Source: Ruminococcus sp. (GTDB taxonomy: Bacteria; Bacillota; Clostridia; Oscillospirales; Ruminococcaceae). Taken from it: a stretch of 64,000 nucleotides of DNA. Positions 1 to 54,600 of the stretch are shown here, piece by piece. The notes beneath the pieces are model-generated. The model ran no database searches. It was not told where the DNA came from and saw nothing but the letters and a program-made list of their open reading frames with translations. The number at the start of each line of letters is the position of its first letter. Within the stretch, counting starts at the first letter, position 1. The stretch lies in NCBI GenBank assembly GCA_016290875.1, contig JAEEVL010000019.1, forward strand, positions 252 through 64,251, in the 5' to 3' direction. Both the position numbers and the translations under genes were made by a program.

Positions 1-194
1 GCAGTGTGGACGGCATCAACGGCAATGTCGATCTCGACATCTGCTACAAGGATTTCCCGACCATCATCAAGGCGAAGGGGCTGAACGGCTACGGCAAGGA
101 ACTGAATCCGCCTGCGCCTGCTGCGGAGGACGGCATCACAGTCGAGGTCACAGTGGACGGTCAGAAGTACAGCGGAAAACTGAATAAGGCTTGA
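1..194 (+). CDS. 3' end of GH25 lysozyme-type endolysin (partial, runs off window start)
   Basis: Frame 3 reads SVDGINGNVDLDICYKDFPTIIKAKGLNGY, the typical C-terminal strand of GH25 muramidases of Firmicute phages; followed by a terminator. Confidence 0.7.
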   Translation, partial: SVDGINGNVDLDICYKDFPTIIKAKGLNGYGKELNPPAPAAEDGITVEVTVDGQKYSGKLNKA

Positions 195-199
195 AATAT

Positions 200-234
200 G
201 GGCTGTCGGAGATTATTTCCGGCAGCCCTTTTTT
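200..234 (+). terminator. Rho-independent terminator after endolysin
   Basis: GGGCTGTCGGA-N7-TCCGGCAGCCC then TTTTTT. Confidence 0.85.
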
Positions 235-336
235 GCGTATAGTGATTGAAAAACTGGTCGGGTTGTGGTATAATTGGGAATGGAAGCAATGTGTGAGATT
301 GCTCGTGTGAATTAAGGCTGATGAGGTGAAAAATAT

Positions 337-708
337 ATGTATAATTCGTGTTTTGGAGAAATGGAGTACGATTACGGCTGGATCACCAAAAGGGATATTC
401 AATTATTCGGTAAAACCTTTGAGGTTGAGGTCAGAATAGTCTCAAACGATAGTGAAGATGGTATTACAGAGGATTCTGAACAATCTTGCATTAGCTATAA
501 AGACAAAGAAACAGAGTATTTACAGTGCATAGAAAAGCTGATGTTGGAATTCAGTGATGATGCAGAAACGAGATTTACTCCCTGTACCCTTTACATTAAA
601 GCTAGCGGAAGTTGTGCTTTACTATGCAGTGATGTAGAAGATGAAGATGGAATAGCGGTATGTATTATTCCTGAGAAATGTGTAAAATATCAATGTGAGT
701 TTCTCTAA
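337..708 (+). CDS. AT-rich acidic hypothetical protein (DUF6985/DUF2004-like), moron-type gene
   Basis: 123-aa ORF, RBS GAGGTG, own promoter TTGAAA-N17-TATAAT (~247-275); N-terminus FGEMEYDYGW resembles DUF6985-like proteins. Confidence 0.6.
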   Translation: MYNSCFGEMEYDYGWITKRDIQLFGKTFEVEVRIVSNDSEDGITEDSEQSCISYKDKETEYLQCIEKLMLEFSDDAETRFTPCTLYIKASGSCALLCSDVEDEDGIAVCIIPEKCVKYQCEFL

Positions 709-753
709 TTATTGAAAAAAGCACAGCGGAAAACTGAATAAGGCATAACACCA

Positions 754-794
754 ACGCCCGTCGGGATTTTTTTCTCGGCGGGCGCATTTTTTTT
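754..794 (+). terminator. Rho-independent terminator
   Basis: CGCCCGTCGGGA...CTCGGCGGGCG followed by T8. Confidence 0.8.
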
Positions 795-870
795 CGTCCA
801 AACGCACTTCGATTCTGTAGTGGGATATGAAGGGGTTGACTTTCCCGGCTATCATTAGGAGGTGAGATTC

Positions 871-1137
871 ATGATAAAGCACAAAATTACCGATAAGGAA
901 AAAGCAATGATGAATGGAGGGATCACTGTGGAAGAGACCAAAGAGCCTGTCGTCCCGGTCGGCGATAAGTATATGCTGACGATCAAAGAGGCATCAAACT
1001 ATTTCAGTATCGGCGAAAAGAAGCTGCGTCGGCTGGCAGAAGAACACACAGGCGATTTCGCTGTTATCAACGGAAACCGCTATTTGATTATTAGAACAAA
1101 ATTCGAGCAGTTTCTCCTCGAAACTTCTACCATCTGA
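871..1137 (+). CDS. xis: Excisionase 1 (Tn916 Xis-like winged helix)
   Basis: KYMLTIKEASNYFSIGEKKLRRL...NGNRYLIIRTKFEQFL matches the Tn916-Xis pattern; AGGAGG RBS before ATG 871. Confidence 0.85.
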   Translation: MIKHKITDKEKAMMNGGITVEETKEPVVPVGDKYMLTIKEASNYFSIGEKKLRRLAEEHTGDFAVINGNRYLIIRTKFEQFLLETSTI

Positions 1138-1237
1138 TTTGACGTTAAAGTGCCGTAAGTAGTTGCTTTTTCGCCGAAATAGAGTAATATATGATACTAA
1201 GCCCGGAGAGGCAAATATATTACTGGAGGCGATCAGC

Positions 1238-1468
1238 ATGGACGAACTGAAAATCCCGGAGAAGTTTATTCTCTCGATCAGGGAGGCTGCTTTATACTTC
1301 GGCATGGGAGAGAAGAAAATCCGCAGAATGGCAGAAGACAATGAAGGCGGCTTTGCACTGTACAACGGTAACCGCTACCTTGTAATCCGCCCGCTGATGG
1401 AGCAGTACTTCACAGCGCTTGCAAAGAAAGGAGGCACACAGGATGCAGAGAGCAACACCGGAGAATAA
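1238..1468 (+). CDS. xis: Excisionase 2 (Tn916 Xis-like)
   Basis: KFILSIREAALYFGMGEKKIRRM...NGNRYLV; GGAGG RBS before ATG 1238 (later than the ORF-track start). Confidence 0.8.
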   Translation: MDELKIPEKFILSIREAALYFGMGEKKIRRMAEDNEGGFALYNGNRYLVIRPLMEQYFTALAKKGGTQDAESNTGE

Positions 1469-1652
1469 GGATTTCCTGACGCCCGAAGAGACGATCGTTC
1501 TTTTCGTCCTGAGCAGACGGAAGTTCGGCGAGTGGCTGCGCAAACAGAACACCCGCCCGATGATCGTGATGGTCGGAAAGCGTAAAATGATCAACCGCAC
1601 AGCCTTTCAGGAGTATCTGTGCGAACACCCTGAATTAAGGAGGAAAATTTAA
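1443..1652 (+). CDS. Excisionase-like HTH protein 3
   Basis: KDFLTPEETIVLFVLSRRKF...GKRKMINRTAFQEYL; AAGGAGG RBS; stop overlaps integrase start. Confidence 0.7.
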   Translation: MQRATPENKDFLTPEETIVLFVLSRRKFGEWLRKQNTRPMIVMVGKRKMINRTAFQEYLCEHPELRRKI

Positions 1653-2899
1653 TGGGTATCAGAGGAAACATCCGCCGCGATCCCAAGCGCCGTATTCTTC
1701 GCGCCGGGGAATCCATCAGGGCGGACGGCAAGTATCAGTTCAAGTATTATGTGGACGGAAAGCCGCACTTCGTTTATAGCTGGAAGCTGGAACCGACAGA
1801 CACACTTCCGCAGGGAAAGAAACCGTGCCTTTCCCTGCGTGAGATGGAGAAGCAGATCGGCTATGACCTTGATGCGATGCTCGATCCGCAGAAGAAAAAC
1901 ATGACGGTGATGGAGCTTGTGGAGCGCTACCTGAGAACCAGAACTGCCGTAAAGCCGCAGACGAAAACGAATTATAACTTCGTGGTGAACCTTCTGAAAA
2001 AGGAGGAGTTCAGCGGCAGAAAGATCGGAACCATCAAGACTTCGGATGCAAAGCTGTTCCTGATCAAGATGCAGAGCGACGGCAGGGGCTACAGTTCCGT
2101 CAAGACCGTGCGCGGCGTTCTGCGTCCGGCATTTCAGATGGCAGTCGATGATGACATTCTCGTCAAGAACCCCTTCGGCTTCCAGCTTGCCGGTGTGGTC
2201 GTCAACGACAGCAAGACCAGAGAGGCTATTACGAAAGAGCAGATGCGCAAGTTCCTGAAATTCGTACATGACGATAACACCTACTGCAGATACTACGAAG
2301 CGGTATTCATTCTGTTCCATACCGGGATGCGCATTTCAGAATTTTGCGGTCTGACGCTGAAAGACATTGACCTGCAGAACCGTATCGTCAATATCGACCA
2401 TCAGCTTCAGCGCACTTCCGACATGGAGTATGTGATTCAGACCACCAAGACGAATGCCGGTAAGCGGCAGATTCCGATTACCGAGGAGGTTGCCCGGTGC
2501 TTTCAGGCGATCATCGAGGACAGAGAGAAGCCGCGACGGGAACCGTTCGTGGACGGATACTGCGGCTTCCTGTACTTCGACGAGAACGGTATGCCGCTGG
2601 TCGCGCTGCACTGGGAACACCGCTTCAACCGCATGGTCAGCAAGTATAATGAGATTTACCGGGTGCAGATGCCGAACATCACGCCTCACATCTGCCGCCA
2701 TACCTATTGCAGCAATCAGGCGAAGGCAGGTATGAACCCGAAAACGCTGCAATACCTGATGGGACACAGCGAAATCGGCGTCACGCTTGACGTTTATACG
2801 CATCTGGGACTGGAGGATGCTGCTGCGGAGCTTCACCGCATGGAGGAAGTCCAGAACGCCCGTCAGGAGATGAACAGAACAAAGGATGAAGCAGTATGA
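1652..2899 (+). CDS. int: Tn916-family tyrosine integrase
   Basis: N-terminal RRDPKRRILRAGESIRADGKYQFKY (Tn916 Int arm-binding domain pattern); catalytic R (TGMRISE), HxxR (HICRH), LMGH, Y (VYTH). Confidence 0.93.
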   Translation: MGIRGNIRRDPKRRILRAGESIRADGKYQFKYYVDGKPHFVYSWKLEPTDTLPQGKKPCLSLREMEKQIGYDLDAMLDPQKKNMTVMELVERYLRTRTAVKPQTKTNYNFVVNLLKKEEFSGRKIGTIKTSDAKLFLIKMQSDGRGYSSVKTVRGVLRPAFQMAVDDDILVKNPFGFQLAGVVVNDSKTREAITKEQMRKFLKFVHDDNTYCRYYEAVFILFHTGMRISEFCGLTLKDIDLQNRIVNIDHQLQRTSDMEYVIQTTKTNAGKRQIPITEEVARCFQAIIEDREKPRREPFVDGYCGFLYFDENGMPLVALHWEHRFNRMVSKYNEIYRVQMPNITPHICRHTYCSNQAKAGMNPKTLQYLMGHSEIGVTLDVYTHLGLEDAAAELHRMEEVQNARQEMNRTKDEAV

Positions 2900-2913
2900 T
2901 CTGCTTCCGGCTG

Positions 2914-2952
2914 CGGCTCACTTCGGTGAGCCGTTATTTTTTGCCTTTTTTG
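2914..2952 (+). terminator. Terminator after integrase
   Basis: CGGCTCAC-TTCG-GTGAGCCG + T-rich tail; near-identical hairpin at 8224-8247. Confidence 0.85.
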
Positions 2953-2954
2953 AC

Positions 2955-2983
2955 TTGATGAATTGGAAGGATTATGGTATAAT
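2955..2983 (+). promoter_or_regulatory. Sigma-A promoter at right end of unit 1
   Basis: TTGATG-N17-TATAAT with extended -10 TG; equivalents at 5675-5703 and 8264-8292. Confidence 0.75.
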
Positions 2984-3052
2984 GGAGTGGTAGGAAATCA
3001 GATAGAAGTGATATGATAGTTTCATTATTTTCAGCATGGAGAGAGTTGAGTT

Positions 3053-3565
3053 ATGTATACAGAAGTAAAAATCGAAAGTTCACTTGTGCTGCCATACAAA
3101 TTGATCGACTTTCAACAAGGTGACGAACAGTTTGTTTTTGCATTCAAATGCTTCGATGAAAAACAGACCGATTATTCAATACAACACGGTGGAGTAACAG
3201 GATCATTTGCGATTGAATACAGATGCTGTGGAATTGATAGCCATTTTGAACTTGATGTTACTGTAGGCAATGTGTATGAGTTTTATGAATCGCTGAAGAA
3301 CGCCTACAATACACAGCTTTGCAAAGACTGTAATGCAGCATTGCGAAATTATGGTTCATTAGACAGAACCTATATTTTAATGAGTTTTGATAAAATAGGA
3401 CATTGTCTGATGAAAGGCTTATTTCTGAATGGAGATCATCAATATAAAAGCGGTATTTCTTTTGAGATTGAAATTGATCAGACATTTATTCCTGAAATAC
3501 TATCATCACTAAAATGCTTTTTTGAAGAATTGAAAAGAATACAAGGTCATGACACCTTTTATTAA
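3053..3565 (+). CDS. AT-rich hypothetical protein, WapI-like immunity protein candidate
   Basis: 170 aa; C-terminal FDKIGH...ISFEIEIDQTFIPEIL pattern recalls the WapI family; no search run. Confidence 0.45.
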   Translation: MYTEVKIESSLVLPYKLIDFQQGDEQFVFAFKCFDEKQTDYSIQHGGVTGSFAIEYRCCGIDSHFELDVTVGNVYEFYESLKNAYNTQLCKDCNAALRNYGSLDRTYILMSFDKIGHCLMKGLFLNGDHQYKSGISFEIEIDQTFIPEILSSLKCFFEELKRIQGHDTFY

Positions 3566-3579
3566 TTTCAAAGCCCAAA

Positions 3580-4066
3580 TTCCTTAGTAGTAAAACACCC
3601 CGTGTTTACTACCATTTTTACTACTAACGATGTCCTTAGAATGCTAAGATTTGCCGCAATTTGCCGAGTTAGCCTCGAATTTTGACAGAATCAATACACC
3701 TGTTCGTCAAAGTATACAAAGGCAAATCGCGGCAAAACACGGCAAAATACGGAGGTTTATACCTATGATAAAGGTTATGTTTGTCTGCCACGGCACGCTA
3801 GATTAACATATTTCATATCATAAGCAAAACGCAGTAAAACAAGGAAAATCGTTGCAATGTATGTAGTCGTTTACTACCATTTTACTACTAACGATTTACA
3901 GTATTCGTAAAATCTACTCCAATCGAGCCCCTAACAGCACCGCAAATCGTGGCATATTGCAGCAAATGTCGGCATTTCATTCTGCACATACAGCATAGTA
4001 TGTGCAGAATTATGTTCACTTTAGTTTTGGCATCTTAACATACCGCTATGGATAGTGACAAAAATC
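3580..4066 (+). repeat. att junction A (attP-like: right arm of unit 1 + core + left arm of cassette 2)
   Basis: TTCCTTAGTAGTAA..TTACTACC..TTACTACTAACGA (3580-3630), CGGCA repeats, GGAGG RBS, ATG 3765 MIKVMFVCHG, core ATGTTTGTCTGCCACGGCA ends 3795, then TTACTACCATTTTACTACTAACGA (3871-3894) and conserved block 4012-4066. Confidence 0.88.
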
Positions 4067-4113
4067 AGCACCATTTTTCAAGCGAAATATACAATATATT
4101 CTGTTTTGAAAAC

Positions 4114-4160
4114 AAAAAAATCCCCCTTAACTTCACGGTGTCATCCGCTGTCAAGGGGGA
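4114..4160 (-). terminator. Probable terminator of the Panacea-GNAT operon
   Basis: TCCCCCTT...AAGGGGGA stem with A7 on its left (U-run on minus strand); loop is long. Confidence 0.5.
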
Positions 4161-4168
4161 AATTGCAA

Positions 4169-5074
4169 TTATACATCGTCTTCTGTTGGTTCGCTTAGAT
4201 ATAGTTGTTTAAACTGTTCTGCCTTCTGAACCAAAGTTTTTATTTCTTGGCATAAAAAGACACATCGCCAATCATAATATGGCTTTACTGCACATAGATC
4301 AGGATCCCTTTCAAAATACAGAGCATGCTTATAGTATTGTATAAGATTTCTTTTTTCATCGGTTTTTTCTTCTGATACATCCGCAGCAAATATTGCAACA
4401 TATACGCACCCGATTAATTCACTAACACTTTTGATTATTGGCATTATTTTATACCAAAAAAGAGTTGCACCTAATGCAGGCTTAAAACCTATTTCACACC
4501 ACTTTTTTTCAGCATTGTGGTTCTTACAGAAATTCACAAGTTCTATGCTCGGAATAATACGATCTACGTATATATTGTTTTGCATATCTAGTTGTTTACA
4601 TGATATTATTTTGGCTATCATGTCAATTAATGACATAGTTTCCTCGTCGCTTAAGCTGTCGTATTTTTCTAATCCAGGAAACATCTGCATTTCAGCTTTA
4701 AAAATATCGATATCCGGACGATCTTTATAACCGGTTACATCCGATTCTTTTGCATAATGATACGCACATTTTAGCTGACTAAGGTCTTCTGGAGAAGCTT
4801 TCTGTAATGAAACAACAAGACTTGCTTGCAATGAAAAGAACAAAAAGACATCAGAATCATCATGCACAACATAAAACAAATCATGTGGTTTGGGAGTCTT
4901 TGTATCTGATTGTAAGTATTCTTTAAGCCTATCAAGCATATCTGATGATACACTATAATAACGATTGTCCGGGTCTCCACAATTAAATTTTTCTAATAAG
5001 CTTAGAATACTATTATCGCCAGGGATAACTCGTGTACAATGCAAACCATTTACATACTCTTCTAAACTCAGCAA
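4169..5074 (-). CDS. GNAT-like acetyltransferase, putative toxin
   Basis: IPSIELVNFCKN...LGATLFW..IMPII..VSELIGCVYVAIFAAD...LIQYY..LYF follows the AtaT/TacT-type GNAT pattern; TTG start directly after antitoxin stop. Confidence 0.55.
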   Translation of the reverse strand: MLSLEEYVNGLHCTRVIPGDNSILSLLEKFNCGDPDNRYYSVSSDMLDRLKEYLQSDTKTPKPHDLFYVVHDDSDVFLFFSLQASLVVSLQKASPEDLSQLKCAYHYAKESDVTGYKDRPDIDIFKAEMQMFPGLEKYDSLSDEETMSLIDMIAKIISCKQLDMQNNIYVDRIIPSIELVNFCKNHNAEKKWCEIGFKPALGATLFWYKIMPIIKSVSELIGCVYVAIFAADVSEEKTDEKRNLIQYYKHALYFERDPDLCAVKPYYDWRCVFLCQEIKTLVQKAEQFKQLYLSEPTEDDV

Positions 5075-5075
5075 C

Positions 5076-5516
5076 TTAATTACCTCTTGCTGCTTTTACT
5101 CTTTCAGCATCTAAATAGATATCCTTAGTTGAAATTCGATTGTCACCATTTACACCTTCTGGAATACCAGCACGAGCACGTTTCCATGATTCTTCTCCAT
5201 GAGAAATCATACTTAAACTCCAAGATAAAATGTGTGAATATTCAGCAAAAACCTTATCCATTATGGACGCTAAGCTGTCATTTCGATAATTTTTGTTAAA
5301 ATCATCATTTTTATAGTGGACTCTTATTTCACGTAAAACAGGTCCATACTTCCACGCCTCAAACTCTTCAGCAAATAATGGATTCCCGGTTTGAATGATT
5401 GATTCACGTTGTGCGAAGTATAATAATTTGTGTAACTTCATTTCATCTATACGCTTATTATTCTCAGCCATATATCTGTTGCAGATATAAGAAGCAATAT
5501 CATAAACTTTATACAT
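5076..5516 (-). CDS. Panacea domain (DUF4065/SocA/GepA) antitoxin
   Basis: VYDIASYI...MKLHKLLYFAQ...PLFAEEFEAWKYGPV...LSMISHGEESW; AAAGGAG RBS before ATG 5516. Confidence 0.88.
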   Translation of the reverse strand: MYKVYDIASYICNRYMAENNKRIDEMKLHKLLYFAQRESIIQTGNPLFAEEFEAWKYGPVLREIRVHYKNDDFNKNYRNDSLASIMDKVFAEYSHILSWSLSMISHGEESWKRARAGIPEGVNGDNRISTKDIYLDAERVKAARGN

Positions 5517-5674
5517 CACACTCACTCCTTTCGTATAATACGCCTTCATACTCTATTACTACCCCATCTTAAGATTATTATACTCAATAATTCTCAAAAA
5601 GTCAATAGGGAATTGCTGCTTTGAGTATTTTATATGAAACGTAACCATCTTATGATATCATAGGTATTTCCATC

Positions 5675-5703
5675 TTGAAGAAAAAAGGATAATATGGTAT
5701 AAT
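5675..5703 (+). promoter_or_regulatory. Sigma-A promoter at right end of cassette 2
   Basis: TTGAAG-N17-TATAAT, extended -10. Confidence 0.75.
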
Positions 5704-5732
5704 AGAATAGCAAAATCCCCTAAAAGTAGTAT

Positions 5733-6398
5733 TAGTAGTAACCTCTTTACTACTACAGAAAAATATCTGGAAGCAAAATCAAGGATTTCACATTGTAGGT
5801 CATACTTTAAAAACCTCATAGAATCGAGAAAAAGATCGTCTGCAAGTAAACGCATTAATGCTCAAAAACAAAAGTGTAACTTACTACTAAAGAACATTCA
5901 GCGTATGTCGTAATTTCCTTAGTAGTAATTTTCCCCGATTTTACTACCATTTCTACTACTAACGATGTCCTTAGAATGCTAAGATTTGCCGCAATTTGCC
6001 GAGTTCACCGTGATTTTTGACAGAATCAATACACCCGTTCGTCAAAGTATACAAAGGCAAATCGCGGCAAAACACGGCAAATCACGGAGGTTTAAGCCCA
6101 TGATAAGAGTTATGTTTGTCTGCCACGGCACTCTGGCGAATATTTTTCCGATCCTATGATTTTAGCGGCATATTGCGGCAAATCGTTGCTTTGTAAAGAA
6201 TACATTACTACTGTTTTACTACTAACGAATCACATTATTATTTTTGCCAATAAAAAGCGGCTCTTTTTAACGGCGCAAATTACGGCATATTGCGGCATAT
6301 GCTTGTTTTTCATTCGGCGCATTAAACCTGCACTGTGAAAAATAATGTTCACTTTAGTTTTGGCATCTTAACACCTACTATGGATAGTGACAAAAATC
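5733..6398 (+). repeat. att junction B (right arm of cassette 2 + core + left arm of cassette 3)
   Basis: Arm motifs at 5733-5755, 5881-5890, 5915-5965; RBS + ATG 6100 MIRVMFVCHG; core ends 6130; arm pair 6205-6228; conserved block 6345-6398. Confidence 0.9.
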
Positions 6399-6491
6399 GA
6401 CATTGTTTTTTGAGCAAAGCAAACAATAATCGCTGTGATGCTTTTATGAAAGTATTAGTATACCGATACTACTGAAAAACGTAAAAAGGTA

Positions 6492-6520
6492 TTGAAAACA
6501 GGATGGAAGTATGGTATAAT
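6492..6520 (+). promoter_or_regulatory. darTG promoter
   Basis: TTGAAA-N17-TATAAT with extended -10. Confidence 0.7.
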
Positions 6521-6555
6521 ATAAAAAGCGGATTATTGCTTTGTGAGGTGACAAT

Positions 6556-7158
6556 ATGAACATTAGAGATGGAAAGTTGATTTACCACTTAGTTCCACTT
6601 GATTCATTGGAATCAATAATTGAGCACGGGCTTATGTCAAGGGATGACTTAGCCGAAAATGGTCTTAGTTTTATTGATACTGCAGATCAAGAGATATTAC
6701 AGAAAAGAGAAAGGCTCGGATTATCTCAATATATACCATTTCATTTTCATATTCATACAGCTTATGATACCGCAGTAAAAAATACAAATCATGATAAAAT
6801 ATTTGTATACATATGTTTACATCGTGATTATGCCAAAAGAAGAGGATTTAAAATTCTGCCCATTCATCCAGCTTCTAATGAACAGCCCCAATTGTTTGAT
6901 TATGAAGAAGGCTTTGCCGCTATTGATTGGGATACAATGGAACTAACGAAAAGTGAAGTGGAAGAACGAGATGAGGATTTAAGGTATCATCAGCAGGTTC
7001 GAATGGCTGAGTGCTTATCACCATTTCCTATTCCTGTTGAGTGCTTTCTATCCATCAATGTTCCAAACGAACAAGTAAAGAGAACTGTTATCGAATTATT
7101 AGATACACATAATATCGTAGACAGACCTCATGTGAATATTATGAACTGGTTTGTTTAA
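6556..7158 (+). CDS. darT: DarT DNA ADP-ribosyltransferase toxin (DUF4433)
   Basis: IYHLVPLDSLESIIEHGLMSR...YIPFHF...RMAECL (putative catalytic Glu); upstream of a macrodomain gene. Confidence 0.88.
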   Translation: MNIRDGKLIYHLVPLDSLESIIEHGLMSRDDLAENGLSFIDTADQEILQKRERLGLSQYIPFHFHIHTAYDTAVKNTNHDKIFVYICLHRDYAKRRGFKILPIHPASNEQPQLFDYEEGFAAIDWDTMELTKSEVEERDEDLRYHQQVRMAECLSPFPIPVECFLSINVPNEQVKRTVIELLDTHNIVDRPHVNIMNWFV

Positions 7159-7180
7159 TCTTAAAGAAAGGAGGAAAATC

Positions 7181-8218
7181 ATGATTAACTTTGTAGTTGG
7201 TAATCTATTGGAATCTAATGCTTTCGCACTTGTTAATACTGTCAACTGCGAAGGATACATGGGGAAGGGCATCGCATACCAGTTTAAAATGCGCTTTCCA
7301 GAAATGAACGCTGAATATGTAAAACAGTGTATGTCGCATAAACTAAGACCGGGAAAACTTCACACCTATGCAGAAGGTTCAAAGTTAATCGTGAATTTCC
7401 CGACTAAAGACAAATGGCGAGAAAAATCCAAAATGGAATACATTACTTCTGGATTAGATGAACTGGTTAAATTAATCAAAGAGAAACAGATTCCGTCAAT
7501 TGCTATTCCGCCACTTGGGAGTGGTAACGGCGGACTCATCTGGAGTGAAGTAAAGCAGATCATTATTCAAAAACTTGGTTGCCTTGATGACACTGTTGAC
7601 ATATATATTTATGAACCTTCCAGAAATTACCAAGCACTGCCAGCGGTTGAACCAAAACTGTCTTTATCTGCACTAATTCTAATGCAACTAAAATTCCATC
7701 TTTTATATGATGATGTGCATTTTGGGGCTATTGGATTACAGAAGACTGCTTATTTTATGAATGTATTATCTCATACAGATTATTTTCGATTTAAAAAAGG
7801 TAAATATGGTCCGTTTGATCATGATATTGATGTGATAGCCAAGAAGATTGGTGAGTTTCAGAAATTTCATAAGGCAACTACCAATGAAGCATATGAAATA
7901 CTACTGCAAAAATTGATCAGTGAAAAAACTCTTCAACAACTGGAATTCTATGCTCCTTTTATAAATAAAGCGGCTGAGTTTACAAATCATTTTTCGGATA
8001 GTGCCTCTATCGAAGGTGCTGGTACTGCTCTATTCATCATTCAGCAGGCTCACTGTGCTACAACGGAAGAAGTAATCGCTGGATTCAAACAGTGGTCTGA
8101 AGATAAGGCAAAACGTTTTTCAGAAGATGCAATAAAATCTGCTATAAACGAATTAGAGCAAGCAGGCTTTATTCAAGAAACGTTTTGTGGATTCCAAATT
8201 GCAAATGGACAATCATAA
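7181..8218 (+). CDS. darG: DarG macrodomain antitoxin
   Basis: GNLLES..ALVNTVNCEGYMGKGIAYQFK..FP...IVNFPTK..WR...AIPPLGSGNGGL; AAGGAGG RBS; DarG-type C-terminal domain. Confidence 0.92.
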   Translation: MINFVVGNLLESNAFALVNTVNCEGYMGKGIAYQFKMRFPEMNAEYVKQCMSHKLRPGKLHTYAEGSKLIVNFPTKDKWREKSKMEYITSGLDELVKLIKEKQIPSIAIPPLGSGNGGLIWSEVKQIIIQKLGCLDDTVDIYIYEPSRNYQALPAVEPKLSLSALILMQLKFHLLYDDVHFGAIGLQKTAYFMNVLSHTDYFRFKKGKYGPFDHDIDVIAKKIGEFQKFHKATTNEAYEILLQKLISEKTLQQLEFYAPFINKAAEFTNHFSDSASIEGAGTALFIIQQAHCATTEEVIAGFKQWSEDKAKRFSEDAIKSAINELEQAGFIQETFCGFQIANGQS

Positions 8219-8223
8219 TATAG

Positions 8224-8260
8224 AGTGGTTCACTTCGGTGAGCCACTTTTCGCTTTTTTC
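8224..8260 (+). terminator. Terminator after darG
   Basis: AGTGGTTCAC-TTCG-GTGAGCCACT + T-rich tail. Confidence 0.85.
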
Positions 8261-8263
8261 ATC

Positions 8264-8733
8264 TTGAAGAAACGGCAACAATATGGTATAATATTAGAGT
8301 ATCTACGCTCGGACACATAAACGATTAATAATTGCTTGGTAGTAACCACTTTACTACTAAAGAAATACGACAGGAAGAAAAATCAAGGATTCAACACCGT
8401 AATTCACACTCAAAGAATCCCCATAGAATCGATGAAAACAGTACTTGTTATATCAAGAATAAACGACCGAAAATAAAAGTGTAACTTACTACTAAAGAAC
8501 ATTCAGCATACAGCCAGTTTCCTTAGTAGTAAAAAGCCCCGATTTTACTACTATTTTACTACTAACGACTGCCATAATATGCAAATTTATGCCGCAATTT
8601 GCCGATTTCGCCCCATTCTGTCAAAATGGGTGTAAAACAAACCAACCTTGCAAAAGTCCGCATAGCACGGCAAAATACGGCATTTCAGGAGGAAAAAATA
8701 GCATGATTCGTGTGATGTTTGTTTGCCACGGCA
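8264..8733 (+). repeat. attR: right arm of cassette 3 supplying promoter, RBS and first codons of the PTP gene
   Basis: TTGAAG-N17-TATAAT (8264-8292); arm motifs 8338-8360, 8486-8495, 8519-8568; AGGAGG; ATG 8703; core ATGTTTGTTTGCCACGGCA continues into intact gene. Confidence 0.9.
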
Positions 8734-9164
8734 ATATCTGCCGTTCACCTATGGCAGAATTCATTATGAAAAAACTTATTGCTGATGCCGGACTCAGTAA
8801 CGAAATATACATAGCTTCAAGCGCAACGAGCACCGAGGAGCTTGGAAATTCCGTTTATCCGCCGGCACGCTCAGAACTTTCAAAACACGGACTTGGCTGT
8901 TCCGGAAAAACAGCTGTTCAGCTAAGAAAGTCAGACTATGACAAGTACGACTTATTCATTGGAATGGACACAGCCAACATACGTAATATGTCACGCATCT
9001 TTGGAAGTGACAAAGATGAAAAGGTCTACAAACTCCTTACGTTTGCCGGGCGCGGAGATGATGTTTCCGATCCATGGTACAGCCGCGATTTCGGAAAGGC
9101 ATACAGCGATATAGAGGAAGGCTGCACTGCATTGCTTTCCTATCTCAAGGAGAATTATTTATGA
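8703..9164 (+). CDS. Low-molecular-weight protein tyrosine phosphatase (integration target gene)
   Basis: P-loop VCHGNICRS, DPWY motif; true start ATG 8703 with AGGAGG. Confidence 0.93.
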   Translation: MIRVMFVCHGNICRSPMAEFIMKKLIADAGLSNEIYIASSATSTEELGNSVYPPARSELSKHGLGCSGKTAVQLRKSDYDKYDLFIGMDTANIRNMSRIFGSDKDEKVYKLLTFAGRGDDVSDPWYSRDFGKAYSDIEEGCTALLSYLKENYL

Positions 9165-9349
9165 GATACACGATACTTGAAATATATGAAGAAGACTACG
9201 GCTGAGAGGAAATCCCGGACGGCGAAGAACCTATGTGCAGTGTCCGTGTCCGCGATGACAAAGGCAACGAAAAACTACTCAGAATAGCGGACTGCTATCT
9301 GATTGAAAACAAACTCGACCGAGGTTCAATACTGAACTGGGAAGAATGA
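9161..9349 (+). pseudogene. 62-codon small ORF interrupted by in-frame TGA at codon 15 (nonsense, sequencing error or recoded)
   Basis: AAGGAG RBS, ATGA overlap with PTP stop; MRYTILEIYEEDYG*EEIPDGEEPMCSVRVRDDKGNEKLLRIADCYLIENKLDRGSILNWEE*. Confidence 0.6.
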
Positions 9350-9369
9350 TATAAATACGGAGGATAAAT

Positions 9370-10923
9370 ATGAGTATACTTAACGTTGAACACGTAACGC
9401 ACGGATTCGGTGCAAGGCAGATACTGAACGACGCTTCATTCAGGCTTCTGAAAGGTGAACACGTCGGACTCGTCGGTGCAAATGGCGAAGGCAAATCCAC
9501 ATTTCTGAACATAATAATGGGCAAACTCCAGCCTGACGAAGGCAAAGTCGAATGGTGCCGTCATATAACCACAGGCTATCTCGATCAGTACAGCACTCTT
9601 GAAAAGGGCAAGTCTATCCGTGATGTACTGCGTGAAGCTTTCAATCACCTCTCTGACCTTGAAGCAGAAATGCTCCAGCTTTACGAAAAGATGTCCGACT
9701 GCTCAGAAGATGAAATGAACGATCTTATGGAAGAAGTCGGCGAGATACAGAGCATTCTCGATTACAGCGGTTATTACACTATTGACGCAAAGATCTCTGA
9801 ATATGCTAACGGTCTCGGACTCAACGAGATAGGTCTTGAAAGAGACGTAGCAGAGCTTTCCGGCGGTCAGCGAGCTAAGGTTCTCCTTGCAAAGGTACTG
9901 CTTGAAAACCCGATGATACTCATTCTTGACGAGCCTACAAACTTCCTTGACGAAAACCACATCAGATGGCTGACCAATTTTCTGCAGAACTACGAAAATG
10001 CTTTCATACTCGTTTCACATGATGTACCGTTTATGAACAGCGTTATCAATGTTGTTTACCATGTTGAAAACGCCGTTATGACACGCTATACAGGCGACTA
10101 TGATAACTTTGAACGTATGTATGAACTCAAAAAGCGTCAGATAGAACAGGCATATGAAAAACAACAGAAAGAGATCGCTGACCTCGAGGACTTCATTGCC
10201 CGCAACAAGGCAAGAGTTGCAACTACCAATATGGCTAAGTCACGTCAGAAGAAGCTCGACAAAATGGACAAGATAACTCTTATGCGTGAGAAGCCTAAGC
10301 CGACTTTTTCTTTCAGGAAGGCGCGAACTCCCGGTCGAGTTGTTATCGACTGCAAGAATGTTGTTCTCGGATATGACGAACCGCTCACCAAGCCTATTTC
10401 TGTCAAAGTCGAAAACGGGCAAAGAATTGCTATCCGCGGAGTTAACGGTATAGGGAAGTCCACCTTGCTGAAAACTCTCCTCAAAATCATTCCTCCCATT
10501 TCCGGATATGTTGAACACGATCAGTTCGTTGAATACGGCTACTTTGAACAGGAAGAAGAAAGCACTTCAAAAACTGCTCTTGACGTTATATGGGAAGAAT
10601 ATCCCTCTATGACAAACGCGGAAGTTCGTGCAGCTCTTGCACAGTGCGGACTCACCACAGACCACATCACTTCACAGATGAGAGTTCTCTCCGGCGGTGA
10701 GAATGCCAAGGTAAGAATTTGCAGGATAATGCTGAGAGAAATAAATCTTCTTGTCCTTGACGAGCCTACAAACCATCTCGATGTTGATGCTAAGGAGTCT
10801 CTGAAAAAAGCAATCAAGGACTACAAAGGCACCGTCCTCATAGTAAGCCATGAACCTGAATTCTACATGGATATTGCTGACAACATATGGAACATCGAAG
10901 AATGGTCCACCAAGATAATCTGA
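9370..10923 (+). CDS. ABC-F family ATPase (YfmM-like)
   Basis: Two ABC domains (GANGEGKS, LSGGQ; GVNGIGKS, LSGGE), no TM segments. Confidence 0.9.
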   Translation: MSILNVEHVTHGFGARQILNDASFRLLKGEHVGLVGANGEGKSTFLNIIMGKLQPDEGKVEWCRHITTGYLDQYSTLEKGKSIRDVLREAFNHLSDLEAEMLQLYEKMSDCSEDEMNDLMEEVGEIQSILDYSGYYTIDAKISEYANGLGLNEIGLERDVAELSGGQRAKVLLAKVLLENPMILILDEPTNFLDENHIRWLTNFLQNYENAFILVSHDVPFMNSVINVVYHVENAVMTRYTGDYDNFERMYELKKRQIEQAYEKQQKEIADLEDFIARNKARVATTNMAKSRQKKLDKMDKITLMREKPKPTFSFRKARTPGRVVIDCKNVVLGYDEPLTKPISVKVENGQRIAIRGVNGIGKSTLLKTLLKIIPPISGYVEHDQFVEYGYFEQEEESTSKTALDVIWEEYPSMTNAEVRAALAQCGLTTDHITSQMRVLSGGENAKVRICRIMLREINLLVLDEPTNHLDVDAKESLKKAIKDYKGTVLIVSHEPEFYMDIADNIWNIEEWSTKII

Positions 10924-11522
10924 TGCCCTGCTATATGTTCAATAAGCCGCGCGACTGTGTTACGGCACGTTCTGATGCGATACACAGAACAGTAATGGAC
11001 TATTTTCCGAAAGAACTCGCCGCAAAGCTTCATCCTGTCGGCAGGCTTGACAAGGATACAGAGGGACTGCTCATACTGACAGATAACGGCGACCTTGATA
11101 TGAAGATAATGCAGCCGGACAAGCATATAAGCAAAACTTACTTTTTCTATGCGCTCGGCGAAATGAATGAGCAGAAAAAGCTTATGCTCGAGAACGGTAT
11201 AGCTATGGCAGGCTTCACCGCCGGAAAAGCTATACTCTCAGATGTTCAGCATTATCGTATAGGAGAACTTGAAAAGTTTATGCCCGCAGACCGACGCGAA
11301 CGCTATATGAAGAATCCAAACGGTCCGGCCTTTTCGGCTTCTCTTACAATATACGAAGGCAAAAAGCATCAGGTCAAACTCATGCTCGAAGCAGTTTTCT
11401 GCCGTATCTTCTACCTCAGACGTGATATGATCGGAAGTCTTGCTCTCGATAATTCGCTGAAACCCGGAGAATACTGTGAATTGTCCCCTAACGAGATTGA
11501 ACTTTTGATGAAAAGCCAATAA
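10923..11522 (+). CDS. RsuA-family pseudouridine synthase (no S4 domain)
   Basis: FNKP, GRLDKDTEGLL, EGKKHQVK motifs; ATG overlaps upstream TGA. Confidence 0.88.
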   Translation: MPCYMFNKPRDCVTARSDAIHRTVMDYFPKELAAKLHPVGRLDKDTEGLLILTDNGDLDMKIMQPDKHISKTYFFYALGEMNEQKKLMLENGIAMAGFTAGKAILSDVQHYRIGELEKFMPADRRERYMKNPNGPAFSASLTIYEGKKHQVKLMLEAVFCRIFYLRRDMIGSLALDNSLKPGEYCELSPNEIELLMKSQ

Positions 11523-11661
11523 AAACTTCAATATAATTTAAAACGCCCCGAATCAGAAACATCATCTGATCCGGGGCTGATTTTACATATGAAAATGTGT
11601 AGGTTTATGCTGTTAGCACATGATATGCTTCAAGGGAACTCCCCCCTTCCACCATCAGAAT

Positions 11662-12408
11662 TTATGTAAGTCCTGTCGCTGAGTAATACTGATCGCGGTA
11701 CTGCTTAGGAGTAGTTCCTATCTCCTTTTTAAAAACGCTGATAAAGGCGCTCTGTGAAGAAAAGCCCAGCGCAAACGCTATTTCAGAACAGGGGTGGTCC
11801 GAATATTTCAACAGATTCTCTGCGGTATTGATGCGTGCTTTAGTTATAAAATGCTTCATAGTAGTTCCGGTCTCCTTAGCAAACAGCTTCGAGAGATAAG
11901 AGCTTTCGAGACCGACAACCGCCGCGAGCTTCTTAATTGAAAGATCTTCGTGGAGATTCTCATAGATGTAATCTATGCTCTTGCGGATATGGAGCGAAAT
12001 AACGTTATTCTTGCGCATATCGTGCATACGCTGTGCGTAGTCGACTCTCATCTGTGCAAATATGTCAAGCAATTCCTCGCAATCGTTGCAGGCATCTGCT
12101 TTCCTTATATATATATCGCTCAGAGTATAAGCCTCATCGTGACTCATTCCGCCTTCAACGCATACACGCGATATTACTGCTACCGACACTATAAGATGAT
12201 ACCTTATGTTCCTGACCGGATCATCTGAAAGCTGTCCCTTGCCCTCGCTGAAATTCTCTCTGACCTTTGCAAATCTGTCTCTGACTGATTCGACGTTGCC
12301 CTGCTGTATGTCGATATAACGCGACATCTCACTGCTGAATGGCATACGTGTAAATCCGTTCATCTTCTGAACATAGAGCCTGTAATTCAGTTCTTTTCCG
12401 GTATCCAT
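11662..12408 (-). CDS. AraC-family transcriptional regulator
   Basis: C-terminal dual HTH (LESSYLSKLF...EIAFALGFSSQSAFISVFKK..GTTPKQYR); divergent from MATE gene. Confidence 0.9.
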   Translation of the reverse strand: MDTGKELNYRLYVQKMNGFTRMPFSSEMSRYIDIQQGNVESVRDRFAKVRENFSEGKGQLSDDPVRNIRYHLIVSVAVISRVCVEGGMSHDEAYTLSDIYIRKADACNDCEELLDIFAQMRVDYAQRMHDMRKNNVISLHIRKSIDYIYENLHEDLSIKKLAAVVGLESSYLSKLFAKETGTTMKHFITKARINTAENLLKYSDHPCSEIAFALGFSSQSAFISVFKKEIGTTPKQYRDQYYSATGLT

Positions 12409-53928: not shown

Positions 53929-54600
53929 TTATAGTGGATGCTCTTTATTTAGCTTTTTAATATATTCTCTTGCTACTTCTAGTTCAGCACTTGTCATTTT
54001 ATCAATTGCAAGTGCAATTTCAACTCTCGACATTTTCGAAAGTTTTTCACAAAAATCATTTGAAACTGTACCATTTATCTTATCGAAGTTTTCTTTATAC
54101 CATTTCTGATATGCAGACTTTGTATTTAATCGCTCGGCCCTTTGCGCATTAGAATCATCAGGTGGCATTATCTCCGCGTTGATAATCATGTTACGTCTTT
54201 TTTTTCTATCTCCGAATACATTTTCCTTATCAAGAGTTTTCATTACCTTTTCCATAAGAGAAAGCCAGTACTCTATTTCGGTGTCATAATCCCCTTCAGA
54301 GACGTCATTCATTCTCTCACAAAAGACCTTGTCAATCTCATTAAAGTATTTCTCAAACCCATATCCACAATATGGAGAATCTGCATATGACCATTTGAGC
54401 TCCTCAACAGAATAGTTACCATCATTCTTATTCACTACTTCATTAAGAGCTTCTTTAGAAAATGCAGAAATAAACGGAGTTGCTCCTTCTGATAGGATTA
54501 AAGTGCAGTAATAAAACTCTTCGTTATGCTCATTAAACAATGCCTCAAATCCGTTTCTTGATGCTTCAAGCAGCAAATCGAAGTTTCCAACTTTACTCAT
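53929..54600 (-). CDS. DUF4303-like putative immunity protein
   Basis: ATGA overlap with toxin stop; EEFYYCTLI...ELKWSYADSPY pattern; acidic, AT-rich. Confidence 0.7.
   Translation of the reverse strand: MSKVGNFDLLLEASRNGFEALFNEHNEEFYYCTLILSEGATPFISAFSKEALNEVVNKNDGNYSVEELKWSYADSPYCGYGFEKYFNEIDKVFCERMNDVSEGDYDTEIEYWLSLMEKVMKTLDKENVFGDRKKRRNMIINAEIMPPDDSNAQRAERLNTKSAYQKWYKENFDKINGTVSNDFCEKLSKMSRVEIALAIDKMTSAELEVAREYIKKLNKEHPL

Follow-up and report, generated by a model that had tools for sequence, protein, structure and literature searches.

The concept of cis-mobilisable elements (CIMEs), and the tandem accretion of such units at the attachment (att) sites that ICEs (integrative and conjugative elements) and IMEs (integrative and mobilisable elements) use, have been established with ICESt1 and ICESt3 of Streptococcus thermophilus (Pavlovic 2004; Bellanger 2011; PMC5704250), and a large survey of chromosomally integrated mobile genetic elements (ciMGEs) with an automatic tool found no CIMEs (PMC10201445). 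Here we describe a locus of this kind in a 64,000-nt stretch of a Ruminococcus sp. assembly (contig JAEEVL010000019.1; the whole stretch is called the window below), where two small units without an integrase gene stand in succession between the end of an element encoding a tyrosine integrase (Int) with excisionases (Xis) and the gene for a low-molecular-weight phosphotyrosine phosphatase (LMW-PTP, hereafter PTP). In our view the region is probably a site-specific tandem accretion array at the 5' end of the LMW-PTP gene, the units of which can still be mobilised by Int and Xis. Among known kinds it would best be filed under CIME and tandem accretion, here with a prophage integrase and minimal defence cassettes.

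The array is marked out by three co-oriented copies of an arm of about 215 bp (P arm; 3577-3795, 5912-6130 and 8514-8733), recovered with a repeat finder and alignments, the starts of which are spaced by 2335 and 2603 bp. Copy 2 is 90% identical to copy 1, and copy 3 is 72-84% identical depending on the block. All three copies are terminated by the 19-bp core ATGTTTGTYTGCCACGGCA and end in ATGTTTGT(C/T)TGCCACGGCA, the only core difference being at the C/T position in copy 3. Behind copies 1 and 2 lies another arm (P' arm; 3796 to about 4100 and 6131 to about 6430), with an identical 29-mer and an identical 21-mer in both, and copy 3, which has no P' arm, runs straight into the intact LMW-PTP open reading frame (ORF; 8703-9164). 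Read from 5' to 3', the junctions are attP-like, attP-like and attR, and they bound a unit of 2335 bp with genes for a Panacea-domain protein and a GNAT-fold protein (cassette 1), then a unit of 2603 bp with the DarTG operon (cassette 2). The left part of the array holds an endolysin gene, two Xis genes, the gene for a helix-turn-helix (HTH) protein, Int, a terminator/promoter, one cargo gene and a P arm. The P arm-core of the prophage is joined to two int-less units in succession and not to PTP.

Both units share a common layout, which consists of the P' arm, a cargo operon with its own promoter, a promoter with or without a terminator, a right extension of about 210 bp with extra arm-type sites, the P arm and the 19-bp core (Table 1). 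A further stretch of about 250 bp upstream of the P arms is common to both cassette right ends (5667-5911 and 8256-8513), and the terminator hairpin and extended -10 promoter that follow the int stop codon (2913-2983) recur directly after the DarG stop codon (8222-8292). The cassettes have a GC content of 34-36%, their surroundings one of 42-46%. A 24-nt arm motif, TTACTACYRTTT(N)TACTACTAACGA, matches exactly the five arms and nothing else in the 64 kb (0 matches expected by chance), and all 12 window sites of TACTACTAA fall inside 3584-8565, where 0.44 would be expected. The sequence CGGCAWAW has 25 matches in the window (6.3 expected in the whole window), 15 of them inside arms, and these are mostly paired at an exact 10-nt spacing on both sides of the core (3649-3747, 5984-6082, 6166-6183, 6283-6300 and 8587-8675); the pairs are probably binding sites for Xis or another accessory protein.

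Table 1. Features of the array and its surroundings in the window.
Feature	Coordinates	Strand	Evidence and remarks
GH25-type phage endolysin, C-terminal end	3-194	+	gene runs off the window start
Tn916-type excisionase, Xis 1	862-1137	+	PF09035, E=3.6e-15; PHROG excisionase
Tn916-type excisionase, Xis 2	1163-1468	+	PF09035, E=6.2e-10
Small HTH protein directly 5' of int	1419-1652	+	weak HTH_17 match; kept with Int in L011 and L039
Tyrosine integrase with Tn916-type N-terminal arm-binding domain	1652-2899	+	PF02920, E=1.2e-28; PF00589, E=2.4e-30
Terminator hairpin (2913-2934) and extended -10 promoter (2955-2983) after int	2913-2983	+	
170-aa cargo gene in the phage int-to-P-arm slot	3053-3565	+	weak WapI-like immunity match
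P arm copy 1 (the prophage's own)	3577-3776	+	93-96% identical to the P arm 3' of the 99% Int in L011 and L039; has the arm-type sites TTAGTAGTA (-193) and TACTACTAA (-158), pairs of CGGCAWAW in phase, and the PTP ribosome-binding site, ATG and first codons
Core copy 1 (ATGTTTGTCTGCCACGGCA)	3777-3795	+	alignments
P' arm of cassette 1	3796-4100	+	arm-type site at +106; conserved inner block
GNAT-fold putative toxin, 301 aa	4169-5074	-	fold comparison
Panacea-domain (SocA-like) putative antitoxin	5076-5549	-	PF13274, E=3.3e-17
Outward promoter (5675-5703) and right extension of cassette 1	5675-5911	+	two extra arm-type sites
P arm copy 2 and core copy 2 (6112-6130)	5912-6130	+	97.7% identical to the PTP-adjoining P arm in L032
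P' arm of cassette 2	6131-6430	+	arm-type site at +105
DarT (ssDNA ADP-ribosyltransferase toxin)	6556-7158	+	PF14487, E=1.6e-23; PADLOC DarT, E=3.6e-34; promoter 6492-6520
DarG (macrodomain antitoxin)	7151-8218	+	PADLOC DarG, E=3.1e-95
Terminator (8222-8249), promoter (8264-8292) and right extension of cassette 2	8222-8513	+	
P arm copy 3 and core copy 3 (8715-8733), the attR junction	8514-8733	+	gives PTP its ribosome-binding site and MIRVMFVCHG
LMW phosphotyrosine phosphatase, integration target	8703-9164	+	PF01451 (LMWPc), E=1.8e-30

The core is the coding sequence of M-F-V-C-H-G, the start of the phosphatase P-loop with the catalytic Cys-His-Gly codons. The empty site, seen in contigs of related strains, reads AGGATGACAAACATACTATTCGTA|TGCCACGGCA and encodes the native N-terminus MTNILFVCHG (loose ends at 8724), and because the segment ...TGCCACGGCA is common to empty and occupied sites it is the likely crossover region. 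Each P arm ends with a ribosome-binding site (RBS), an ATG and codons for MI(K/R)VMFVCHG, and since every P arm has a promoter-fed leader, an RBS and a substitute N-terminus, the adjoining unit, whichever it is, rebuilds the PTP ORF; the outward promoters all point towards PTP. An arm-motif scan of species-representative genomes gave 40 loci with such arms, in metagenome-assembled genomes (MAGs) of rumen Ruminococcus and Oscillospiraceae and in the isolates Ruminococcus sp. XPD3002 and R. flavefaciens 007c. At most of these loci the P arm sits directly 5' of PTP and shares 84-96% identity with that of the window, against only 50-83% for the PTP proteins themselves, which marks the P arm as mobile DNA inserted in diverse hosts. 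The integrase family as a whole (56-91% identical; L053-L132, from rumen and human gut) targets the same LMW-PTP P-loop codons (..TGC CAC GGC A..), with insertions that replace the PTP N-terminus, and identity of the host PTP proteins to that of the window is no more than 42-84%, a divergence that gives the PTP site a broad host range.

The window units resemble CIMEs in that att sites related to those of an Int-bearing neighbour enclose them (both have a P' arm on the left, and a P arm and core on the right), that they have no int, xis or transfer genes, and that they stand in tandem at one target gene with attP-like hybrids as internal junctions. The likely origin by deletion and the expected mobilisation by the Int/Xis of the neighbour would also be shared with CIMEs. 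They are unlike CIMEs in that their helper is a temperate prophage, not an ICE, and their target is the 5' end of a protein gene, so that each unit must rebuild promoter, RBS and N-terminus. The units are also very small, at 2.3-2.6 kb, of which att and backbone DNA make up about a third, and stackable two or more, and they carry single toxin-antitoxin (TA) or defence operons together with a non-coding backbone that is unseen in Int-bearing relatives.

Comparative data support the window cassettes as independently assorting units. Seventeen metagenome and metatranscriptome runs, most of them with labels of bovine, sheep or unspecified gut, were compared as contigs, which show presence better than absence: both cassettes were found in X1-X3, cassette 1 (about 99% identity) without cassette 2 in X4, X8, X9, X10, X16 and X21, and cassette 2 without cassette 1 in X5, X7 and X12. 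Cassette 1 in X8 and X10 leads from its P arm-core straight into a PTP gene, about five of whose first 30 nt differ from the window allele. In X4, X9 and X21 another type of P arm (...CAAATCAGAGAGGAAAAAACG) stands before the P' arm of cassette 1, the switch lying at 3764-3795. Cassette 2 has at least three different left neighbours (X5, X7 and X12), with the switch at 6100-6112. Core-located exchange points and near-identical cassettes beside divergent neighbours are predicted by site-specific recombination, because homologous recombination in the 215-bp arms would scatter the breakpoints. An independent contig, L044, carries a DarTG unit, with a DarG 90% identical to that of the window, as the first unit after the phage and another unit behind it, in the order int 3' end, 178-aa gene, P-core-P', DarTG, right extension, P-core, third-type P' and further genes.

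Tandem int-less units are a general feature of this locus family. A P-core-P' junction takes the place of P-core-PTP at 12 of the 40 genome loci, and the same core is used by 80 metagenomic Int relatives (70-91% identity), where the core that follows Int leads directly into PTP at 26 loci and into a P' arm at about nine; over all loci, 53 of the 87 cores are followed by PTP and 34 by a P' arm. The loci closest to the window, L011 and L039, consist of Xis-Xis-Int (98.8-99.3% identical to the window Int), terminator/promoter, P arm and PTP, with no cassette between. The geometry of the arm-type sites is constant, at -193(-)/-158(+) or, in a second branch, at -183/-149, and a site at +105/+106 is found in many P' arms, including the attL of the Int-bearing L110 and L124. 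Neither the first arm pattern nor the P' inner-block motif had a match in viral contigs.

The cargo of these other int-less units, which have a boundary on either side and no gene of the Int family, differs from unit to unit. The 2.6-kb unit of L013 encodes an XRE-HTH protein, a Peptidase_M78 protein (ImmA/IrrE-like) and a protein of 189 aa; that of L044, of about 2.6 kb, carries DarTG; that of L057 (5.1 kb) encodes a STAND NTPase and a 256-aa protein; L062 has a unit of 4.8 kb with a type II restriction-modification system and a 380-aa protein, then one of about 2.5 kb with a HATPase_c_3 protein; and the 3.4-kb unit of L114 carries the PADLOC candidate-defence protein PDC-M59A and a transporter. 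Other cargo adjacent to P' arms includes a JetD-like DUF3323/DUF2399 protein, a GTPase and AAA_14/DUF4143 ATPases, and some loci have transport or metabolic cargo of ordinary look. As relatives carry such units in other numbers, in other orders and with other defence cargos, the PTP attachment site appears to be a build-up point for defence modules.

The Int/Xis module of the window belongs to a temperate prophage, and of this element the window covers just the final 3.5 kb, its right end. The neighbour is a temperate phage and not an ICE, because lysis genes lie directly 5' (the endolysin, and a holin in L053) and because relatives sit at the ends of viral contigs. The ORF at 3-194 is 68% identical to the C-terminus of a 260-aa Glyco_hydro_25 protein of L053, a locus with a 91% identical Int, where a holin gene is followed by the GH25 endolysin gene and then by Xis/Int. 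Relatives of Int (56-91% identity) are found at the ends of 40-55 kb IMG/VR viral contigs, as in L136 (Int 91%), at the end of a contig of 41,953 nt, and in XPD3002 a phage-type family-A DNA polymerase, read from the sequence and not from a family-library scan, is among the genes 5' of Xis. The Int and Xis genes of the window appear intact, and an exact look-up of the window Int protein in the contig index gave no match. A Tn916-family ICE was rejected as an identity for the neighbour, given the phage lysis genes upstream, the viral relatives of 40-55 kb and the strict integration at the PTP core (>80 loci). A preliminary description of the window, made by reading the sequence, had spoken of a Tn916-type integrase and, as background, of CIMEs beside streptococcal ICEs; the integrase type holds for the protein family, while the neighbour itself, with the endolysin upstream and relatives on viral contigs, is a temperate prophage.

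In a more distant, human-gut branch of the family (Int about 71%), both ends of elements of about 11 kb could be seen, with genes for a capsid protein, repressor-like HTH proteins, Xis and Int, and with a slot for cargo. Complete human-gut elements (L104, 2346-13375; also L120, L124 and L128) are only about 11 kb long, and the annotated genes of L104 are those for an HK97-type major capsid protein, two HTH regulators, a DNA methylase, Xis, Int and a DUF7380/DUF4209 cargo protein. No portal or terminase gene was seen in L104, in the annotation of this one element, and an element of the L104 type may be a phage satellite or a degraded prophage.

Accessory genes are also found within the prophage end itself. 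The 170-aa gene between int and the P arm is missing in variants, with joints of 2992->3575 (X4) and 2985->3572 (X6), and searches with its protein gave no above-threshold match to a family of Pfam, PADLOC or PHROG and no sequence hit in the PDB. A 123-aa ORF lies between endolysin and Xis (337-708); it matches DUF6985 weakly, has a diverged promoter-module copy 5' of it, and may be another phage accessory gene. The module in question, of about 90 bp, is a terminator hairpin and an extended -10 promoter of the form GGCTCACTTCGGTGAGCC...TTGA..-17-TATGGTATAAT, and is found in the window at 2913-2983, 5675-5703, 6492-6520 and 8222-8292, with a weaker copy at 229-274. It has matches in 23 loci and is multi-copy in L029, L003, L014 and L032, where it stands two to four times between successive cargo genes in the int-to-P-arm slot; in L029 (1459-6108), for example, four copies separate GNAT, EamA, methyltransferase, TetR, DJ-1 and hydrolase genes. 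This looks like a second, smaller-scale way to stack cargo genes within the phage.

Each cassette of the window has two genes, and the Pfam, PADLOC and PHROG families found among them are TA or defence families only; scans of the cassette genes against the same three libraries gave no recombinase, relaxase or replication family. In cassette 1, the Panacea gene sits immediately upstream of the toxin-like gene, as in PanA-type TA pairs, and the operon has a minus-strand promoter at 5605-5577. For the 301-aa protein, too, the Pfam, PADLOC and PHROG scans gave no family above threshold and the PDB no sequence match; it belongs to a small family of 30 database clusters. Its AlphaFold2 (AF2) model, built on 29 aligned sequences (28 relatives and the protein of the window), has a pLDDT of 86, and the best Foldseek matches of the model are GNAT toxins of the AtaT, KacT, TacT and ItaT type, with 7byy among the best, which supports, at the level of the fold, a GNAT protein resembling tRNA-acetylating toxins and thus a putative toxin. 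The 301-aa gene overlaps a Panacea gene and is always paired with one, and the pair is kept in an unrelated chromosomal context in L133; from sequence and model, the two genes would form a putative PanA-type TA pair. In cassette 2, DarT and DarG overlap at 7151-7158 and have the gene order of DarTG systems. Contigs of X12, an RNA library from a sheep-gut metatranscriptome, span DarT-DarG (6549-8210), which is consistent with expression of DarTG and also with DNA carry-over.

Much of the preliminary description is borne out by these results. The three-arm, two-cassette structure was recovered by the repeat finder and by alignments, with gene calls in agreement, and the alignment of junctions supports the attP-like, attP-like, attR series. 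The scans likewise uphold the claim of cassettes with no integrase, relaxase or replication gene; the cargo, given as DarTG and as Panacea with a GNAT-like protein, agrees with the PADLOC and Pfam matches and with the fold comparison; and insertion in the LMW-PTP gene is seen in the P-loop codons of the core and in the empty site. The check proposed on relatives, that number, order and cargo of cassettes should vary, came out as expected, with cargo that is mostly defence or TA genes.

Homologues of DarG (76-84% identity) also occur in unrelated contexts, such as a serine-recombinase element and the chromosome, so the DarTG operon moves between many elements and is uninformative on the cassette itself. 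In L042 (7125-9259) and L043, a DarTG operon 79% identical in DNA lies inside an unrelated element with resolvase, HTH and PIN_12 genes and retains no more of the P' arm than its inner part, and of the right extension the first 100 nt or so; cargo and part of the backbone have moved to, or from, another kind of element.

On the reading of the array as mobilisable, phage Int with Xis would recombine any pair of cores, a unit would be released as a circle carrying an attP-like P-core-P' site, and the circle would re-integrate at any PTP-linked core; the array as a whole could leave with the prophage by recombination of the phage attL with the outermost attR. The outward promoter in the right end of each unit would keep PTP expressed, and TA or defence cargo would favour retention of the unit. 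The units themselves would have come from Int-bearing elements by internal deletion, and would then have spread and swapped cargo in the int-less state. A bolder version, which we hold to be possible and advance with reserve, is that the cassettes are a dedicated lineage of minimal 'att-only' mobile elements parasitising the Int/Xis of widespread temperate phages of rumen and gut Firmicutes, and that together they form an integron-like, phage-driven defence array. Members of such a lineage would combine about 0.8 kb of conserved non-coding backbone, made up of the P' arm and its inner block, the terminator/promoter, the right extension and the P arm, with a swappable single defence or TA operon, would be excised, re-integrated and reshuffled at the PTP core, and would exit together with the phage.

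Several points weigh against mobilisable units. The attL and P' arm of the window's phage lie outside the window, which starts inside the prophage, and a match of the cassettes' P' arms to that phage's own is presumed. Internal junctions carry both P and P' arms, and productive excisive complexes of Int and Xis there are hypothetical. A circle of 2.3-2.6 kb would have no visible means of its own for transfer from cell to cell. Neither the joint of a cassette circle nor a restored junction within one population was found in the run contigs, which drop rare variants, and the differences between samples could reflect homologous recombination between arms of 72-97% identity, or simply different strains. 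The order in the window also rests partly on metagenome assembly, with the short-k contigs of X1 breaking within the repeat at 3631-3717. Lastly, the deletion derivatives described next show simple decay to be frequent in the family.

A rival reading is that the units are inert relics, that is, prophages or elements once integrated in PTP that have been cut down by deletion and are no longer Int substrates, with the differences between samples due to strain histories and occasional homologous recombination in the arms. Clear deletion derivatives are indeed present. L029 has a MATE gene followed by the last 35 codons of int, cargo and a P arm; the unit 5' of the L013 cassette is reduced to promoter and P arm; and a contig of X21 (6130 -> 2801) joins the core and 14 nt, GCAGGGCTGAAACA (the start of an L034-type P' arm), to the last 100 nt or so of int and the terminator/promoter, a ready example of deletion turning an Int-bearing element into an int-less unit. 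The P arms, and the terminator-promoter module that follows DarG, share homology with the right end of the phage. Taken with the deletion derivatives, this makes decay of Int-bearing elements, as in CIMEs, the likely origin of the units, against which stands the part of the backbone that is confined to int-less units (below). Inert relics would also fit the lack of an excision product among the run contigs and the DarTG homologues, 84% identical, that retain partial arms in another context (L042/L043).

What makes inert relics unlikely, in our judgement, is the conservation of the units outside their genes. All arm-type sites stand at exact spacing in both units and in diverged relatives, and arms and right extension are conserved above the level of synonymous sites: between the window and L044, identity at third codon positions is 59% in DarT and 70% in DarG, compared with 76% in the right extension, 71% in the P arm and 87.5% in the terminator/promoter, and the P' arm, diverged between the two, keeps conserved blocks at the arm motifs. 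Two backbone pieces, the right extension and the P' inner block, were confined to int-less units (cassettes 1 and 2, L013 and L044), with no match in any Int-bearing locus among about 215 loci or in viral contigs; L041 is a second copy of cassette 2 with its backbone pieces, and L042/L043 hold partial copies of the backbone. A search of Rfam gave no match in the window at 1-12000 on both strands (E<=1), so these two segments are no known RNAs. Arms and cargo have also been recombined, with an A-type P' arm beside DarTG in L044 and a B-type P' arm with the right extension around unrelated cargo in L013, the P' arm of cassette 2 being 90.7% identical to that of the L013 cassette; this suggests a persisting, cargo-swapping family of int-less units. 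Independent decay would not yield one non-coding backbone with unrelated cargos, and to this may be added the cassettes of about 99% identity that lie beside different PTP alleles and neighbours and switch at the core.

It is improbable, for its part, that the array is the accessory (moron) end of the prophage, in which the outermost core (8715-8733) would be the functional attR, the units would be excised as cargo and the internal cores would be vestigial. Relatives do hold defence genes between int and the P arm (ThsB-TIR in L057, DUF4209 in L104), helper and accreted units are co-excised in CIME-ICE tandems (PMC5704250), and the outward promoters all read towards PTP, as a moron end would have it. 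Yet in the closest relatives, with Int at 98.8-99.3%, PTP follows directly after the equivalent of P arm copy 1; each unit occurs without the other, beside other elements or, in X5 and X12, apparently without a phage P arm on its left; and the full arm geometry is present at the internal junctions. That an assembler joined repeats of different strains into a tandem order is very improbable: X1 contigs do break inside the arm, and related strains with different arrangements coexist in the same samples, but depth in X1 is uniform (about 7-10x) over Int, both cassettes and the flanking chromosome, independent contigs span cassette 1 to cassette 2 (X2, 5954-6414) and core 1 to the A-type P' arm (X1, 3717-5899; X10, 3765-4069), L041 confirms the stretch from DarG to PTP (99.9% over 2462 nt), and equivalent arrays are found in other assemblies (L013, L044, L057, L062 and L114).

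Beyond CIMEs, the site-specific accretion array can be set beside several other systems. As in integrons, int-less single-operon units are stacked beside a tyrosine recombinase gene, their number, order and content vary, and they are rich in TA and defence genes as are sedentary chromosomal integrons. Unlike integrons, the window has no IntI, attI, attC hairpins or common Pc, the integrase belongs to a phage, the junctions are attP-like sites of about 500 bp in the style of lambda and Tn916 with direct and inverted 9-mer arm sites, and each cassette has its own sigma-70-like promoter. A true integron was rejected, as every defining feature fails (a PF02920-type Int in a prophage beside Xis; attP-like borders), and for the same reason the comparison is an analogy only; the Firmicute analogue of an integron put forward in the preliminary description is not sustained. 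A phage satellite, of the kind of phage-inducible chromosomal islands (PICIs) or their minimalist counterparts (PICMIs), was rejected as well, the cassettes having no integrase, regulator, replication or packaging-redirection genes of their own.

The tycheposons of Prochlorococcus islands (bioRxiv 10.1101/2020.12.28.424599) and the tandem prophages of M. abscessus (PMC9934374) are alike in their successive integrations at one site, by which earlier arrivals are displaced inward, and in partial copies of the target gene between units, but such arrays are mostly Int-bearing or eroding remnants at tRNA genes, whereas the window units are compact, intact-armed and int-less. In defence islands beside phage or PICI att sites, which lateral transduction mobilises (PMC12829572), defence genes likewise stand at a prophage end and could travel with the phage; unlike in those islands, the defence genes of the window are bounded by complete copies of the phage att site, which would be an additional, site-specific route. 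With regard to cargo, the window matches DarTG systems in DarT and the macrodomain protein DarG, and is like PanA systems in the Panacea antitoxin gene, but differs from the latter in the 301-aa GNAT-fold partner, which is of no sequence family. Full-text searches of the literature gave no description of this phage family or of PTP as an integration site, which is not proof of absence.

Far from the array, a low-GC patch of the window (35-38%) encodes a 2949-aa RHS-repeat polymorphic toxin (54597-63446, minus strand) that has a PT-HINT domain and, at its C-terminus, an AHH nuclease domain, and the DUF4303 protein gene that follows it (53929-54600, minus strand) likely encodes its immunity partner.

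If active, the units would be among the smallest integrative mobile elements known, consisting of att-site DNA and one defence operon; as inert relics, they would still make the locus a clear case of tandem accretion where the target is a protein gene's 5' end and expression signals are rebuilt. The PTP site could also serve as a natural integration system for genetic work in Ruminococcus and relatives. Since the phage family is common in rumen and human-gut Firmicutes and always uses the same phosphatase codons, the PTP locus would be a predictable place for finding new defence systems, of which the 301-aa GNAT-fold partner of Panacea, belonging to no described sequence family, is one example. 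Should the accretion array prove to work as proposed, it would mean that the power to assemble defence arrays and to reshuffle them extends beyond ICEs and integron integrases to the recombination module of a prophage.

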